DNA from: Spizellomyces punctatus DAOM BR117
Lineage: Eukaryota
DNA: 64,000 nt
NCBI GenBank assembly: GCA_000182565.2
Contig: KQ257452.1
Strand: one strand, 5' to 3'
Position 1 is the first letter of the stretch, and each line of letters opens with the position of its first letter. The notes below the pieces were generated by a model. That model searched no databases. It worked only from the letters and a program-made list of their open reading frames with translations, and was not told where the DNA came from. The position numbers and the translations under genes are program-made. Of the stretch, positions 12,773 through 22,305 are shown in pieces.

Positions 12773-14382
12773 CTATCGATACCAGTCCCGGAGCTTCTCA
12801 CAGTTTTGCATCTTCATCTCCTGGGCTGCTCGAAGCTTTTTCTCATCCACCGTAAACCATCCATTTGCTTGTGCAATGCGGAAGCGCTTGATCTCTTGTT
12901 CTTGAGCGCAGAGATGCTGAAGGTTGCGATGCCACTAGGTACATATTTGTAAGGTATGTAATCCGCAGCACGTGTCGCATCTTCAAAAGGCATACCTCGG
13001 TTTCAACATCCTGCTCGTACTTCTGCAACTTGTCATGCCTAGCTTTTGAGCCATCCCATCTGTTCCATGCTTTTGCGTTAACAAAGTATGGGACGCTCCG
13101 TGACTCGGTGGCCCGGCGAAGATTGTACTGTGGGGAGGTTGCGAAAGAAAAATTCGGTTCTGGATCTCCTCCAGGGAGGAGGCCCGAGAACAGAGCCGAT
13201 AGTAATGGGAAAACGAACAATACAATGACAGGGAGGAGATGGAAGAATTGCAGAACTTGGGCCTGGCCAGCTGTAGGATGATGTTGATGTGCGTGCGGGT
13301 TACGCCGGAATGATTGCGTACGGAATCCAGGGCCTGTAGTAAAACTGTGCATGCGAATTCCTAGATTCAAGAGAACTTGTGAAAAGGGGCTCCTTGGCAC
13401 TCAACCCCTTAGAAATGACCCCTTACCTGACCCTCCCATGCCCCCCATGTCCCCGAAAAACATATTGAACAAATCCTCCGGACTGATCTCACTTTCAAAT
13501 GGTGATCCGCCAAATCCTTGCCCGCCAAACCCGCCGCCACCACCGCCTCCCCGTGAAGTTTCAGAATCTACTCCAAATCGATCATACTTTGCACGCTTAT
13601 CGGTATCCCCCAGAACCGCAAAGGCGTGTCCGATTGCTGATAGTTTGGAAAGATTCATTACCCTGTTTTGATACGATAGGACTGCGTATTTGAGTTGTCT
13701 TACCTTTAAAAGCATCGTCTGTCCCTGGTGCTCCACATTTATCAGGATGGAATTGCAAAGCCAACTGTCCCCACACTGTTAACTGCAAGGCAGCAGAAGA
13801 TAGGAACCGTAGAACTCGAATAACCCACCTTTCGATACGCCTTCTTGATTTCAATTTCTGCGCATCCTTTCTCCAGTCCCAAGATAGCGTACAAGTCGCC
13901 TTTGGCTTTACAAGCTTTGATTCGCTTTATACCCTCAACCTGATCCGGTGTAAAGGGACGAGACGGACCAGCGTCTTCGCTGTCAGCACTGTTTGCAGAT
14001 GCCAATGAAGTTGCGCGTTTCCGGCTTGTCGCTGCCGAAGGTCGTGCGCTGGAAGAAGTGGAGGAGGATGTTGCTGAGGAGGCGTGTGCGTGCTTTTTGA
14101 GAAATGCCAACTGTTTGACATGGAATGTTAGAGCGTGGGAAGGTCCAGTCACAAAATAACATAGGTAAAATATGCTTCAGCTGCAACGGCAGATGATATA
14201 CTACGGATCTGCCTAATGGGCACGGTCTAAACAATAATGCTTACCCAGTCAATGCCTTCCGCAGTCTCGCAGAGTGCTATACTCTTGTTTGCAAATTTCA
14301 ACGCCGCGTCTGTGTTGCCGCTCTGGAACTTGTCTTTTGAGATTTGCAGGCAACGTAAAGCCTCGTCTTTGTTCATAGACAT
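12773..14382 (-). CDS. ER-membrane J-domain co-chaperone (DNAJB12/14, Hlj1-like), multi-exon
   Basis: MNKDEALRC N-terminus, J domain with LALQFHPDK...AFK..IGHAFAVLGD, G/F region ISPEDLFNMFFG, TM segment, DUF1977-like C-terminus. Confidence 0.93.
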
Positions 14383-14515: not shown

Positions 14516-15440
14516 CGCGTGGCGGAAACTCAGATAACAATGTTCGTCTTTTGCGACTGAAGACTTTTGGAAATTTGGAAAAGCACAAGACGACAAACTA
14601 GCCCAAAGTATGCTATGGTAAACAAGCTTCTACTATGGGTCTTGCACGCGCAAAACGCAACGGTTGGTCTAATGCAGACTGTACGACAAGTGGTGGTTGT
14701 CAACATGATTTGCATCTTGACGTCGGGGCAGGTAGCAAGTGGGAAGATATTTCAGATGCTAACAGTATGGGGATGTACAGACACACCTGTAACGAGGCTG
14801 CAATAGGAGCTTGATTGCTTGGTTGGTAGTACAGTTTTGGGTCGAAAGAGGAGGTAGCTTTTGGCCCGCCCAAAGTCAGCTTGAGCGAGTTTGCAAAGAT
14901 CGACGATGATGGAAACGCAAGAGAACGAATCCTTGTAGAACAAGAATACCACTGTCTCCTGTGGCAAAAAGTAACTGTGCGCCCCTGTCATCCTTGGTAT
15001 TTGGAACCGAGCTTTACGACTTGGATGTAGCAAACATTGTGATTCTGGCGTGAGTGCTTTGCAACTGGTGGTAAGACTCAAGCCATTTTGTAAACGCCAA
15101 GACTTTTAGGCCTGTCGAACAGGAATGCTGTGTCGATGTCTCATGGGCCGTAGTTTATCCTCCAAACTGAAATTCCTCCAGCTCTGGCGATTGCGTAAGC
15201 AAACCGCGTGAGCTTAGCTGACTTAGCTTTTTAAGCGAACGTGAGCCCTGGTGGGAAGGAAAGGCCAAACCAAGGCGGCGTCAGGATTTCCAAAGTCATC
15301 CGTGTGCAGAGGGGGCTCGTTGTGGCCGGATTTTGCTAAAGTCCTATAGGCATAAACTAAAATAGGACCACTCTGGTAAAGAGTGGGGCCCAAGTACAAG
15401 CACAGGGCTGTTCCTGTTTCCGCTTGTGCAGAATTGCTGA

Positions 15441-18400
15441 ATGGATCACGCTCAAAATACTCCCTGGCAGCAAACGTCTGCCTCCCAAACCCCGTCCTCT
15501 TCGGCCGCTTCACCTTTTGGTGGCATAATGTCAACTATGACTCCATATGGAGCCCCCACAAGTGTGCAGGCGCTTCTTTCTGCCCAACGAAATGTGCTAT
15601 CCTCCGCTCCACCAAATCAACCGCCGCAGTCGCAGCAGTTCTACACTTATCAGCTGCATCCGCAGCCTCTGCAATATCTCGTCCCGTCGACGCTGTCAGG
15701 CGCCAACTCTTCCGTATCCTTTCCTGTAACGATAACAACTCCTTATGGTAAGGGCAGCACATCCGCTAGCATAAAAAACTAGGACTGTTTTCATTTGATG
15801 TGAGACAAAGATAAAAATGCTGACAACCGGAAAGCAATCCAACTGTACATGGTTGTGGAGCATTATCGGAATATATCAAAATTCTGATTTTCTCAATGAT
15901 ATCACAAACACTGTTCGCATGCCAAGGTTCTAGCAACCGTCGGGTGCACATCGTTAACAACAGCAAAGAAATTGATTTTCGTCGTCACAAGCTGATCCTA
16001 TGATGTGCCATTTTCGCAGAGAATTCCTCAACTTACCTAAGAAAGAAATTCAGCCCAGAACAAACCGATTTCATGAGAAAGAAATTCGATGAGAATCCTA
16101 AACCTTCTGATCAGATCTATAAGGAAATTAGCCAGACTGTTGGTCTTTCGGAGAAACAAGTAGTGTGCACAATTTCTGAGATGGGTTGGTATGGGATTCG
16201 TGTAGCTAAATCTGTCTCCCGGCAGGTCAAAGACTGGTTTGTGCGAGAGCGAACGAAGAAGAAGAATGCGAATAATGCCGTGTCAATGCCTACACCAGCG
16301 GCAACTCCAGTAACGATACCAGCGCCATCAGCTATAGCCTCTTCATTTGGACCAACGGTGACCAATCCAATGAGCCTTGGGCACTTCCCGTTCAACCCTA
16401 GCGCGACTACGACATATAACCCAATCGTCCCCAACACACCTGTTGGAGTCTCCGTGGCCCAACCAGTGGCAAATGCTCCTTTTATTTCAGCAGTAGCAGC
16501 CCAATATACTCCAAGTAGCAGTATACCGACAGTGCCGCATCCCTCAGCAATTGCATCCTCTTCGACCAGTAACTCATCACTGGCAGCGCCGACCGTCAAT
16601 GCATATGAGGCATATACCCCACTGGGAACGACCAGCCAAAACACTACGGTTGCCGCACCAACAAGTAGCACGAACGTCTCGATGTCTGCACCGATGCCAT
16701 CGGGAAATTCCGTATATCCAACATATTCCGCGTTTCCCGTCGCTGCAGCAAGTGCAAATATGAATGTTGTACCAGCGACGAATGCAACTCATGTGTCTAC
16801 AATTTCGCCCCAAAGTGTCAATACATCTGCTGTCCCAACAGATGGAAATCTAGTACTACCATCGGGAATGACCGTCAGTGTAAACAGTCCATCAACAAAT
16901 CCAATCTTGCCATATAGCATACCGGCTGCCACCAACAGCGTCGATGTAGACTTCAAGTCCCGAGTAGCGCAATTATTGGAGACTCACAAGTATCTTCAAG
17001 AAAGACATGGTTGCAATCTTCCTTTCTCTGCCATGTATCCTTCTCTTTGGGCATCCGCCCTACCGTCGACATTTTCGGGAGCTCAGAGCATGCCTCCGAA
17101 CAATTCAATGCCTGGTTCACTGAACGGGTGGCAAACAACTGGTGTGCAACCATCAGCAAGGGAAACAAATGCAACAGAAGTTGCTAGAAGTGAGCCACTG
17201 GAGACGGAGACTTTCCAGCTACCTGAAGACGGCGGCATGCGTGCAGATTCTCCTGTGTCCGAAGATGTAAGCAGCTCGGCAATAGATGTGAAGAGTAACG
17301 CACATACTTACTCGGTATGGTTTATAATAGGAAGGATCAGGGGAGACTCTTTTGGCACCTTTTCTGACCGAAGATGGACAAGTGAAAGATAACTCTTCCG
17401 CTCAAACACTGGCGAAGCAGTTGGCGCGAGCCACGGTCTGGCAAGAAAGAATTCCGATATTAAATGCTTTTGAGAAAACCTCAAACAAAGAAGTCTTTGC
17501 GAGGTAAGCTCCTTTTACAATTGTACTGTGACATCGATCTTTTTTAATGACGCTCTGTCGTCTATGTCAAATAGCTTTTTGAAGAGGCAAGGATTAAAAA
17601 CAATGACCAAAATGTTACTGAAGGCCAAAGACACAATACACGAGAACAATGTGGCTACCTGTGCTATTGTGGCGCTCAAAGTCCTTCTCAAATTGCCGGT
17701 AGAGTTGAGTGATTTGCGCGAGATGAAAACAGGGAAGCTGGTCAAGTACTTTGCATCCATAGACGCTGGGATGCAATCCCCTGGTAAGATCGGGATCTTA
17801 CGCCGATGTTACTATACGTGTCGCGCTCATGACTATTTTGTTTGTCTTTGCCAGCCGTCCATGACGCTGCTGGGTCTGTAATGCGCAGCTGGCAGGCGCT
17901 GATCGGTAAAGCAAGCGCCGACAAAGCTGACGAGAAAAAGCGTATCAGAGATGATTCTAGTGGTGGAGCAGCCAAGAAGACAAAAGTGGTGGACGGACCG
18001 AAGAAGGCCCCTGCAGAGGCGGACCGTAAAGTCGTTCAAGCTGTGGATAATTTCGACATCTTTAAGTCGCTATCACATGCAGCCTTACCAAAGATTAAGA
18101 AAGCCGAAAAACCGGTTGCAGCAAACTCGGATGCTCCCGTATCAACTGAATCAGTGAAAGAGACTACCCCTGTAGATGACATGGCAGAATCCAGGTGCGC
18201 CTCGTCGGTATACCAGCGAATTTGTTTATGGACATTCATTGACCACTTGTCTTTTCTTGCAGTCCTACATCAACCGCTAATTCTTCGTTACTCATTGATG
18301 CTGACAAGATACCCAGCTACCGCAGCACTAACGAGAAAAGCGAAGAAACGCCAGCATCGGTAAATGAAGCCAAGCCAAAAAAGAAGCGAGTTAGGTTTGC

Positions 18401-19820
18401 CGAAGCGGACAAACTTGTTTCGGTGCGATATTTCGAGAAATTCGAGCCAACTCAGGAGGAAGAGAGAGAGGTGGGTAATACTTATAGTGCCACCGAGTCA
18501 CGGATGGGCGCTGATGACTGTTTGATATATTTTGCAGGCGTTTAACATTACACCACATGAGCGTGGTAACGCGCGCGATTTCGATCGCCAAGAGGGGCAT
18601 AGAGCGTTCAGACGCGAACTAATAGCATCAAGAGATTGGGTAGCTCCGTCTGGTGAGTCAGGGTATATAGACGTCACTCCTGACAGGATACTAGGGACTC
18701 ACACCAGCTTCACCTTGACCTCCAGTCATCAGCTGGCCAGTTTCCTATGAATGGGGCCGCGACTCCACGGAAGCCACAGCGCAGCAAGACCGTGTACGCG
18801 GAATTCTCAGCGCCACGTACTTCTCGGAGGACCAAATTCCGTACTCTCCTGCTGAACCTCCAGAAGAACAGGAAACTAGTGCGGTGATCCCACCAAGGAT
18901 CATTCTGGTGGACGATCAGCAGAGTGTGGTACGTGCAACGCATCCCGGGAACGTAAATAAGTTGCTAATCCGACTGTGGCTCTTTCTTAGAATCCAACAT
19001 TGGACGTCGCAGGACAAGCGACGGATCCCAATGTTGCTATGAATCTAGGTACAAGCAATCTGGATGTAAGCGGGCTTTTGAATGCGCTGTCATCACAGCA
19101 GCCGAGTGTACTGGGTGCGATTGCTGGGCTACCAGCGCAGAATGTTGCACCCGTACCGAATCAGATGGACCTTGGGACCACATTGTTGTCTGCACTCAGT
19201 TCCCTTAGTATGCCCAGCGCGCTACCACAGGCGTCATTGCAGCCCGACCCTAACGCACCGATTAACGCACAAGCAATTCTAATACAGTCGCTTCTTTCGG
19301 TGAGTAACATCATTACGAGGAGTTCAAACGATGGTTGCTAAATCGTTGCGTCATATAGCAATTGGGTGGCCAGAATGCGGTATCTCCGGCGAGTATCCCA
19401 AATCCCGTGGGCTTACCATTGTCGTCTTCCCAGACCGAACAGCCACATCAGCAGCGACAGCTTCTAAATTCCCTCACTTCACAATTTGGACAAAACAGCA
19501 CCCAATCTCTGTCACAACACGTACAACCACAACAACAAAACCAAGGGCAGAATGGACGTCCTAACTCGCGATGGGGTCCACGAGGAGGACAACCTGACTC
19601 GATGCACCGCTCTCATCGAGGCGGCCACCGACCGGGTCCTTACGAGCGGCCTGATCGGGGACGTGGAGGGATTCAGCAAGGGCGTGGACGTGGTGGCGTA
19701 ATCAATCATCGTGCACGCGGAACCAAGAGTTGTTTTTTCTACACACAGGGCTATTGTAGAGCTGGAGAAGCCTGTACATTCCGACATGACGTGCCTCCAG
19801 CGTCAGAAGGTGGAACGTGA
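15441..19820 (+). CDS. PP1 regulatory subunit PNUTS/PPP1R10 orthologue with an N-terminal homeodomain (homeodomain, TFIIS-N, RVxF, CCCH), multi-exon
   Basis: Homeodomain RKKFSPEQ...GLSEKQ|VKDWFVRERTKKK; TND LAPFLTEDGQVK...LKLPVELSDLREMKTGKLVK...MRSW; KKKRVRFAEADKLVSVRYFE; NARDFDRQEG; C-terminal CFFYTQGYCRAGEACTFRH. Confidence 0.88.
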
Positions 19821-22305
19821 ATAATTGTGATTATGAAAGCCGACGTATTGGAACCACGCAAAAAGGATCGTCCTTGATGGTAATTTAGTATGATATGTAT
19901 ATAAAGTACCCCGTTTGCAGCCAACGGCTCGTCCGCCTGTAGAACCCTCCTCTCCACTATCCATTACATTTCACTTGATCAGTGGTCCACGCACCTGATA
20001 TTATCTTTTCAAACACTGTCATCAGTCAGCAGTCAGCATCCTCACAACAGAACCAGTGTGTAATAGACAATGTTCAGTCTCTAGTCCAAAAGTATCATGT
20101 AGCGAACGAAGACAGCACAATCAAGAAAGGTTGCAAATGCAGATAAGAGTGTCGGACTTATCACGGATTTGTCGCATCATGCTCTGTATAAATTTCCGTA
20201 TGTCAGAAACAAAAAACATGTCATTTTGTATCGGCATAGTCGGCATTTCCAATATGGCATAATTTGCATGACCAGCGTTGCAATAGTGAGCGACTTGTTC
20301 GCTGATATCAGTGTTTTCAATGTACCAAAATTTATTCTGTAGTTATTAAATCCATAGACGAACTAGCAGATTGCCTCTAGTTTGGTTGTTAACTCCAATA
20401 CGGTTTTGTCTGTATTGGAAGTAACAAATGTTCATAAATAATGCTTGTGCAACATGTCCGAAGATGCCGCGCCACATCGCGCTCGGACGTATGTAGGTGG
20501 AGACCCAAATACCTGTTGACTACAAATCGAGATTTGATATCTATACATAAGAATGCAGGCAGATTGAGTTCAGATATATGTGATACCCAATGCCCGTCGT
20601 GCTCTTGGTTGGCCTACTATTAATAACAGTCGCATCTCTTGTGAGACGTCCTGTGAGAGTCGATGGAGACAAAATATATCACAATGTACCAGGAAGGAAT
20701 GTCCGCTGCATTAAATGCGCCAAGCCGTATAAAGAAACGCAAAGCGGCTAAAGGCCTCTCGACGTGTCGCTCTCAAATGTCGACAAAGGTACTTTGTCTC
20801 AGCCATTTCTGAGGGTACGTCGCATTGCAAGAGTAAATGTTGTTCTGATTTTGAGAGTCGAAAGAGAACCATGCATTTAATGCAAGCACAGATTTACAAC
20901 AGGGTTTCCTATTTCCCCGTCCTTTCTGGACTTCCTCATTCTGCTTGCCGCAGGATTCTTCCAACTTTCTATCCCACCCACCAGCTGACCAAGGCCGGGA
21001 TTGTGGATAACTTTCAATTTGCTGGCCAGTGCGGCGTAGTCTCGTTGGTGGCCATATTATGTTGACATGCAATTGAAAGTATTGAATATTGCATTCATTC
21101 GTTACCTTCACTGTTTTTATCATACAAACATCCAGTTTGGATGCTGTGGTGTATAAATAGGCGCTTCTGGATATTCTCCCATGTGTCAATGAGCCTTATA
21201 ACCGCTTTGCCATGACAAGCGCAACTTTGTCTGAAGACTCTCGTCCACACGCCCGTTACATCGTGCAGGATGATGATGTGGAAGTGGTGATTTTGGATGA
21301 TGGCCGACTTTATACTTCACAAGGAAACGGTCGAACGATTTGAGCCAGACAGTTCTGCGGTGTTGGTAATTGACGAAATATCATCCAGAACTTTGGCATC
21401 ATTGGCACTACCTCTCTGCCTAAGCTACTGGAGCTGCTCGAGGAGTGGCTTCAGCTTGCTTCGGTGTTGACCAATGTCGCGGTAGCAAGGACAGCCAGAT
21501 ACCGGATACAGTAGAGGATCTCCAGGACATCGAAATACAGCGTGACAACACCAGAAGACTGCTCCGGTTTCCCAATGAATGTTTTCAGTGTTTCAAAGTT
21601 TTGGCTGTGACCAGCGCAGAAGTCTCTGAGAAACACTGTTGACTGCCGGGAACATTTATCTCCATGCCGCTTGATGTCCTCGAGTTTCAATATCGTCGAT
21701 CTTATTCGTTGAAAAGGATGACCCGATGCAAACCTCTTCGATCCTTACGTACAAGCACAACTAACGGTTGTTTTTTCACTCTATCTGCTCCTCAACTTCT
21801 TTTAGTAATGGGCAGTATCATTAGTGCATCATCCAAGAATTACAGCGTCTGCTGCTTGCTGCATTACGCTTACTGAAAGAAGCAGAAAAGGTTGGGTGTT
21901 TGGGTGCGCTGGAATCTGTCCAACGCTATCAATGCTACCAACAGGATAGTTTTGGCATTGGTATTCAAACCAAGGATGACGACGGTCTATTGTGGTATGA
22001 ATGAAATACGTGCAATATAGCTTGTTCCCTTGCCAGTGTGGAGGGAGGGTGTTTGGGCGTAGGGACTGAACGTCTTCTCCGTTCAGATGTACACGCATCT
22101 ATGTGCTAGTATGCATGCAAACCGCTCATGTCCACACTCTCCAGCTTTGTGTTTCAAGTGCTATTTGACATCATCCATTGGCCCTTTCTTTATCCACCCC
22201 TTCATCCAGATGGACCATATCTGAGCAGGTTGAACGACGACAAGTGTCCATAGCAGGTGACGTCGCATAAAGTACGCTTATGTAAGCACTAAGTGCGCGT
22301 TATAG

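Follow-up and report, generated by a model that had tools for sequence, protein, structure and literature searches.

PNUTS, together with PP1 and WDR82, forms a central switch in the pausing and termination of RNA polymerase II (Pol II), and the way in which this phosphatase module is placed on chromatin is still debated. As far as the available parts of their descriptions go, S. pombe Ppn1 and budding-yeast Ref2, which belong to the CPF/DPS phosphatase module, have a fold like the TFIIS N-terminal domain (TND), an RVxF motif, which is KSVSW in S. pombe, and a region for binding WDR82/Swd2 in which a WPL/I motif is accompanied by a charged helix; those parts mention no homeodomain and state a zinc finger for mammalian PNUTS alone. 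A TND, an RVxF motif and a putative WDR82/Swd2-binding region are found in the protein considered here, SPPG_02096 of the fungus Spizellomyces punctatus DAOM BR117. Its gene occupies 15441..19820 on the plus strand of a 64,000-nucleotide stretch of contig KQ257452.1, which is called the window below. We think it very probable that this gene encodes the Spizellomyces orthologue of PNUTS/PPP1R10/Ppn1 with an added N-terminal homeodomain, through a fusion that took place early in fungi and was lost in Dikarya.

In plants, LUMINIDEPENDENS (LD) is described, in the available parts of two papers, as an atypical homeobox protein with a TFIIS domain and as the proposed equivalent of Ref2/PNUTS (PMC7616277, PMC12704789). 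The same parts report that LD is the best Arabidopsis BLAST match of PNUTS, that it co-purifies with APRF1 (WDR82-like) and TOPP4 (PP1), and that it is found on chromatin at sites lacking a typical homeobox motif (PMC7616277, PMC12704789). According to the portion available of Mukherjee et al. 2009, the LD homeodomain has a typical length with the changes W48F and N51X, and LD occurs from moss to flowering plants, with none in green or red algae (PMC2775110). The equivalence between LD and PNUTS rests on weak sequence similarity. The fungal family to which SPPG_02096 belongs joins an LD-like front (a homeodomain without Asn51, and a TND) to a PNUTS-like back (RVxF, WDR82-type motifs, CCCH finger), and in our opinion it can serve as a bridge for testing that equivalence.

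A homeodomain ahead of a PNUTS-type scaffold

The locus was modelled as one plus-strand gene of 11 exons and 10 GT..AG introns, coding for 1168 amino acids and a stop. Its translation is identical to NCBI SPPG_02096 (P0001; 1168 aa), which carries the database label "uncharacterized protein". The protein is laid out as follows, in window coordinates:

16040..16267, plus strand: homeodomain, residues 110-163, Pfam Homeodomain, split by intron 16160..16225 at profile position 44/45
16235..16252, plus strand: recognition-helix core WFVRER, with W48, F49 and R53 kept and Asn51 changed to Arg (engrailed alignment)
16268..17348, plus strand: linker, residues 164-502, about 339 residues rich in S, P, A and T, interrupted by intron 17267..17330
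17349..17916, plus strand: PNUTS-type TND with preceding helices, residues 503-644, exons 4-6
18387..18434, plus strand: PP1 dock, RVRF 779-782 and downstream VRYF 791-794
18637..18859, plus strand: putative WDR82/Swd2-binding region, with WVAPSVI 840-846 (across intron 18653..18725), helix 858-877 and IPYSPAEP 882-889
19731..19787, plus strand: CCCH zinc finger, C-x7-C-x5-C-x3-H, residues 1140-1158, after an arginine/glycine-rich (R/G-rich) stretch

The homeodomain that had been proposed from the sequence alone is well supported, as the string then quoted corresponds to residues 110-163 and scores 47.5 bits with Pfam PF00046 (cut-off 22.9) over profile positions 4-57 of 57. The translation of exon 2 by itself matches profile positions 4-44 and ends exactly at the intron. 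A phmmer search of the PDB (177,635 sequences) gave an engrailed chain (2.1e-7) and DUX4 (1.2e-6) as the best homeodomain matches. The canonical set W48/F49/N51/R53 is incomplete: Asn51, which in homeodomains is the key residue for contact with DNA, is replaced by Arg. Judged by its residues, the homeodomain of SPPG_02096 is atypical and of typical length. The substitution recurs in the family: among 22 distinct homeodomain rows, 21 have Arg at position 51 and one, from Apophysomyces, has Gln, while W48 is kept in all rows seen. Among 257 non-family homeodomain rows of the same search, which are a biased background selected by likeness to SPPG_02096, Asn is the commonest residue at position 51 (104 rows) and Arg is found in 39. 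The linker that follows the homeodomain is not alignable between phyla.

As a separate observation, many of the homeodomain-only phmmer matches (P0009, P0015, P0017, P0018, P0120, P0126, P0133 and others) are proteins in which divergent homeodomains, 6 to 15 or more of them, form long arrays, and position 51 in these multi-homeodomain proteins is often other than Asn.

Beyond the homeodomain, the original prediction had named a TFIIS-N domain, a PP1-docking motif written as KKKRVRF..LVSVRYF and a C-terminal CCCH finger, and all three can be located. For the first, the PDB search returned four human PPP1R10 TND chains (9ci7, 7lqt, 6vti and 6zv2; 1.1e-5 to 2.7e-4) that cover about 130-140 residues within 504-652 and are the only non-homeodomain matches among the best 60 of 121 at E<=10. 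When 30 other family proteins were scanned, 16 exceeded the cut-off of the Pfam Med26 model. Because BLASTP against an abalone (Haliotis) PPP1R10-like protein gives three colinear matches, SPPG_02096 can be read as a PNUTS orthologue: the middle block (MID, which contains the RVxF motif) aligns at 751-911 vs 455-615 (2e-12), the TND at 504-640 vs 13-141 (1e-7), and the RGG and CCCH end at 1109-1158 vs 815-876 (4e-4).

The PP1 dock lies in residues 776-794 (window 18378..18434), which read KKKRVRFAEADKLVSVRYF, and comprises, at sequence level, an RVxF motif and a downstream hydrophobic (phi-phi) motif. When 11 fungal sequences are aligned, its K, V and L columns show no variation. A MID profile built from fungi only, which reads KrKrVrF..L..i.lFE, has the human PNUTS PP1-binding peptide as its best PDB match (4moy/4mp0, E 0.087); in the 4moy alignment RVRF lies opposite TVTW, and VRYF opposite the YFYF stretch.

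Downstream, the charged helix STEATAQQDRVRGILSATYF (residues 858-877) stands between WVAPSVI and IPYSPAEP. The fungal WDR82-type region holds invariant W, P, R, P, P, E and P columns, and its pattern S.E...Q..RER..L...Y.....IP.SPAEP is conserved and recurs in the abalone PPP1R10-like protein. In the part available of a study of S. pombe PNUTS, residues 565-644 bind WDR82 through a WPL/I motif (565-EIIWYKPVPIKF-576) and a charged helix (599-PEATSEIEREKN-610) (PMC13710762). Judged by that published description, WVAPSVI and STEATAQQDRVRGIL fit the two motifs (PMC13710762). The fungal MID profile matched no solved WDR82-PNUTS chain in the PDB. The CCCH finger is placed inside the last 30 residues of SPPG_02096, where it falls within the third abalone match, and orthologues, P0006 and P0100 among them, pass the cut-offs of Pfam CCCH models.

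The predicted TND, RVxF dock, WDR82-type stretch and CCCH finger are thus in the order of animal PNUTS: metazoan PNUTS/PPP1R10 shares with SPPG_02096, in the same succession, the TND, the RVxF and hydrophobic dock, W..P, S.E..Q..RE..L...F/Y....P.SP.EP, an R/G-rich tail and the CCCH finger. The two differ in that SPPG_02096 has about 500 extra N-terminal residues (homeodomain and disordered linker) and in the RVxF motif itself, which is RVRF against TVTW in human PNUTS.

The protein might instead be mainly a sequence-specific homeodomain transcription factor whose PNUTS-like parts no longer recruit PP1. Conservation of the homeodomain over five phyla would suit such a role, as would the source names of some relatives, called just 'Homeobox domain-containing protein'. 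We nevertheless regard it as very improbable: the RVxF dock, the WPL/I stretch and the charged helix hold invariant columns of the fungal alignment, the replacement of Asn51 weighs against canonical site recognition, and no second PNUTS-like Spizellomyces protein is among the phmmer matches, the genome itself not having been searched.

As a PNUTS/PPP1R10/Ppn1 orthologue, SPPG_02096 would be a largely disordered scaffold of a nuclear PP1 module that dephosphorylates Spt5 and the C-terminal domain of Pol II and promotes termination. From work on PNUTS and Ppn1, the RVRF/VRYF pair would dock PP1, the WPL/I region and the charged helix would hold WDR82/Swd2 and so bridge to the cleavage-polyadenylation machinery, the TND would bind the TIM motifs (TND-interacting motifs) of elongation factors, and the CCCH finger may touch nascent RNA. 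Binding of PP1, WDR82, DNA and RNA by SPPG_02096 is in this way predicted from its motifs. Because of the Arg51 substitution, and because LD occupies sites without a homeobox motif, the homeodomain is more plausibly a low-specificity contact with nucleic acid or protein, helping to place the phosphatase on chromatin, than a TAAT-type reader. The chromatin-targeting role first suggested for it is putative, for a domain in which Asn51 is replaced by Arg. Spizellomyces is transformable, and we think that this locus offers a tractable genetic setting for the role of a homeodomain on a phosphatase scaffold.

Distribution of the architecture among fungi

A phmmer search over 1.84 billion representative proteins gave 162 matches at E<=1e-3. 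Hidden Markov models (HMMs) of four blocks of the family were mapped on 151 proteins taken from this search and from a word-indexed search with the TND exon. A TND or MID block is carried by 77 of the 151; 57 have both, and 38 also have the CCCH tail. Names are known for 30 family proteins that were looked up. PPP1R10-like proteins of Haliotis and Calicophoron are relatives named as such by their sources, to which Ciona and Clavelina were added by a later search; proteins of Basidiobolus, Daedalea and Botryobasidium have the UniRef labels PPP1R10 or CAT53, and a Rhodelphis protein also falls in the family. An Atlas feature search with residues 495-915 gave, as leads, basidiomycete TFIIS-N/CCCH clusters (0.93 and 0.85) and chordate PPP1R10 (0.83).

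The survey of domain architectures and the HMM checks that had been suggested with the original prediction place a homeodomain ahead of the TND in 19 of the 77 family proteins, that is, in 19/19 of those with a family-HMM homeodomain, and the TND ahead of MID in 18/18 of those having MID. All 19 are named, and all are fungal. When 32 family proteins were scanned with the Pfam Homeodomain model, 15 reached the cut-off, 3 were sub-threshold and 14 gave none. On the chytrid side the bearers are Spizellomyces (two), Fimicolochytrium, Chytriomyces, Entophlyctis, Phlyctochytrium, Chytridiales sp. JEL0842 and Physocladia P0196; further ones come from Funneliformis, Racocetra, Ambispora, Endogone, Podila (two) and Basidiobolus. 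Powellomyces (a truncated model), Apophysomyces and Blyttiomyces are just below threshold. Besides the four non-Dikarya fungi named below, the 14 with none comprise two basidiomycetes, one ascomycete, three animals, Rhodelphis, a EukProt protein and two further relatives. The absence of a homeodomain from animal PNUTS, assumed at the outset, agrees with the 0/3 animal proteins scanned.

Five bearer genera looked up in the NCBI taxonomy belong to Chytridiomycota, Glomeromycota, Mucoromycota, Mortierellomycota and Basidiobolomycota, and an Atlas cluster whose 68 proteins come most often from Mucoromycota has Homeodomain in 82% and Med26 in 72%. The shortest linkers have a few dozen residues (Podila humilis, homeodomain 14-68, TND from 92), the longest more than 400 (Basidiobolus). 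Since their lengths vary so widely, a shared annotation artefact is very unlikely. On this domain evidence, non-Dikarya fungi of five phyla usually have the homeodomain-PNUTS form.

A quick maximum-likelihood tree of TND and MID was made with 31 rows, namely the named proteins and four others, the remaining family matches being left out. With Rhodelphis as the root, an animal-containing group of 7 rows (SH-aLRT 89) stands apart from a fungal group of 23 rows (85). The two basidiomycetes, which lack the homeodomain, branch inside a set of Glomeromycota and Mucoromycota that bear it (group support 94). The simplest reading, and the most likely one, is that the domain was gained once, in the fungal ancestor or earlier, and then lost in Dikarya. 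The original prediction had offered losses in both yeasts and animals as one of two histories, the other being a convergent fusion, and of the first the yeast, or Dikarya, part is plausible, with 0/3 Dikarya proteins bearing the domain and basidiomycetes nested among bearers. Model yeasts and animals would then represent a reduced form of the fungal/opisthokont protein.

Several results weigh against an orthologue of PNUTS that gained its homeodomain early in fungi and lost it in Dikarya. At the level of the domains, the Pfam Med26/TFIIS-N model scores 15.3 on SPPG_02096 vs a cut-off of 20.6, though the whole profile is spanned (587-640), all Pfam CCCH models are below cut-off (best zf_CCCH_4, 20.2 vs 29), and the similarity to the PP1-binding peptide in the PDB is weak, with E 0.087 over 29 residues. 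As for the history, 10 of the 28 inner branches have SH-aLRT <80 in the quick search, and the Dikarya scanned are three proteins. Four non-Dikarya fungi lack a Pfam homeodomain, namely B. dendrobatidis, B. salamandrivorans (both Batrachochytrium species), Nowakowskiella and Physocladia P0091, and the family-HMM match of B. dendrobatidis is partly by construction, as this protein was in the training alignment. Finally, a continuous transcript was not seen in RNA run X7, where the depth over the gene body is 0-1 and no splice joints are listed. Some of the absences of the homeodomain may be due to truncated gene models. We keep to the reading of an early fungal gain. The protein is already in databases as SPPG_02096 without a name; no account of this architecture was found in the searchable literature, whose coverage does not extend to subscription journals.

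Two side observations concern individual members of the family. Physocladia obscura has two family proteins on different contigs, P0091 (955 aa, TND and MID without homeodomain) and P0196 (439 aa, homeodomain and TND), which may be paralogues or the result of a split or duplicated assembly. In Endogone sp., P0010, P0181 and P0182 are isoform models with one locus tag and different N-termini, and a partial homeodomain is present in P0182 only; the locus may have alternative starts, some of which skip the homeodomain, or its models may be uncertain.

Relation to plant LUMINIDEPENDENS

The premise of the original prediction that LD is the PNUTS counterpart, with an atypical homeodomain near its TND, agrees with the available parts of the papers (PMC7616277, PMC12704789, PMC2775110). 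As described there, LD resembles SPPG_02096 in having an atypical homeodomain ahead of a TFIIS-N domain ('LUMI') within a largely disordered protein, and the order in SPPG_02096, with the homeodomain at 110-163 and then the TND at 503-644, is the LD-class order that these papers give. The descriptions also bring out differences. LD has W48F, whereas the fungal family keeps W48, N51 being replaced in both; LD is reported only from land plants; and the available LD descriptions contain no mention of an RVxF motif or a CCCH finger.

Such likeness could be due to an ancient fusion, with a homeodomain-PNUTS that predates the split of fungi and plants, LD and the fungal proteins as surviving orthologues, and loss of the homeodomain in animals, Dikarya, green and red algae and others. 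The common order, with a homeodomain of typical length before a PNUTS-like TND, speaks for this history, together with the loss of Asn51 on both sides (N51X in LD as described, Arg in 21/22 rows of the fungal family) and with the reported standing of LD as the best Arabidopsis BLAST match of PNUTS that co-purifies with PP1 and WDR82 homologues. For residues 1-310 of the Ambispora protein, moreover, the nearest named Atlas cluster is 'Homeobox protein LUMINIDEPENDENS' (0.84, 187 shared features), a lead that stays below the 0.9 line. Even so, an ancient fusion seems to us rather unlikely. LD is not among the 162 phmmer matches as far as these were examined, none of the homeodomain-bearing family matches is non-fungal, and LD is absent among the Atlas matches listed for the TND and MID part. 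The W48F reported for LD does not agree with the W48 kept in fungi, and no LD is found in green or red algae in the portion available of Mukherjee 2009 (PMC2775110). Homeodomain-less PNUTS-like proteins in Rhodelphis, three animals and protist-like relatives mean that many independent losses would be needed. Word-indexed protein searches with the TND exon, with 12 full-length proteins and with a TND alignment of 18 sequences gave no LD among the matches listed; the 12-protein search missed members of its own query and is no evidence of LD absence.

Independent fusions in plants and in fungi are the history that we favour, with moderate confidence. The distribution leans towards two separate events because no homeodomain is found in Rhodelphis, in animals or in the protist-like relatives and because LD is reported from land plants only (PMC2775110). 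A wider proposal, for which we see a limited chance, is that homeodomain-PNUTS was the ancestral eukaryotic PP1 termination scaffold, that the fungal proteins tie LD to animal PNUTS in one orthologous family, and that the homeodomain was lost repeatedly. If it were true, the Asn51-less homeodomain would be an old, non-canonical anchor of the phosphatase on nucleic acid or chromatin, and the interest of the locus would be higher if the link to LD proved to be orthology.

Gene model and transcript evidence

The model was rebuilt from GT..AG sites and continuity of the reading frame, and the exon set below is the only combination that keeps a single stop-free frame together with the conserved residues. 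The splicing proposed originally, at 15748/16020, through the in-frame intron of the open reading frame at 16073 and at 17267/17331, agrees with it, all sites being present and the translation being that of SPPG_02096. Further features are:

15441-15747, 16020-16159, 16226-17266, 17331-17503, 17575-17783, 17855-18194, plus strand: exons 1-6, splice-site/frame model
18263-18470, 18538-18652, 18726-18928, 18991-19299, 19359-19820, plus strand: exons 7-11, splice-site/frame model
15441..15747, plus strand: exon 1, low-complexity N-terminus, residues 1-102 and one base
15748..16019, plus strand: intron 1, 272 nt, GTAAGG at 15748 to ..CAG, about 4 times the length of the others
16160..16225, plus strand: in-frame intron inside the homeodomain, 66 nt
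17267..17330, plus strand: intron before the TND exon, GTAAGC at 17267 to ..TAG, 64 nt
19821..19924, plus strand: 3' untranslated region to the poly(A) addition site, from run X7 depth and an A tail near 19924

The other nine introns have 59-73 nt each. An Rfam search of 14800-20400 gave 0 matches at E<=1, which leaves intron 1 without a known RNA family. The sole start codon upstream of the complete homeodomain is in exon 1, and the exon 1 junction is also found in the model P0002 of Spizellomyces sp. 'palustris', whose protein is 92% identical and whose model retains the in-frame homeodomain intron. For exon 9, the acceptors 18708 and 18733 were ruled out, each bringing in stops; acceptor 18741 is in frame and was rejected as it deletes VISWP of the conserved WPL/I stretch. 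Lying 15 nt past 18726, the 18741 site might serve as an alternative splice that alters the putative WDR82 contact (W-x-x-P-x-x-I without VISWP).

A gene-model artefact, with an adjacent homeodomain gene and a PNUTS gene merged by prediction, is in our view extremely unlikely. It would fit with a low-complexity linker between homeodomain and TND, with the lack of splice-joint reads in run X7 and with a separate pile of RNA reads at 15200-15843. Exon 3 alone, however, keeps the frame of the homeodomain open over 347 codons, from within that domain up to 64 nt short of the TND exon; by our own arithmetic a stop-free random run of this length would have a probability of about (61/64)^347, or about 6e-8. 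The fusion is also predicted in 19 fungal proteins by different annotation efforts, some of them with short linkers. The case for a single gene is made by the open frame and by the orthologues that carry the same fusion.

The RNA data are compatible with a continuous single transcript. Run X7 (426 mapped reads of 60 nt, strongly 3'-biased) has a plus-strand depth of 41-49 at 19708-20000 and a poly(A) loose end behind 19924, and the 3' end of the gene is supported by these reads. The same run, with its 3' bias, shows no read pile or poly(A) end between the homeodomain and TND parts. In runs X1-X3 the contigs are colinear with the genome through the introns, a genomic-type signal that is uninformative on splicing.

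The second pile of run X7 reads, at 15200-15843, lies away from the 3' end. Its plus-strand depth is 5.3 at 15200-15360 and then 3.7 and 7.4 at 15522-15843, reaching about 100 nt into intron 1, and its minus-strand depth is 5.4 at 15361-15521. These reads may come from the 5' untranslated region together with exon 1, from a transcript that is antisense or divergent, or from internal priming where A-rich stretches occur near 15775 and 15812.

The upstream neighbour is a DnaJ-like gene of several exons on the minus strand at about 12850-14380 (J-domain string DLYAILGLEKG...), and because of its orientation exon 1 is not part of another gene. The DnaJ-like gene is divergent from the PNUTS gene, and about 1 kb separates the two start codons.

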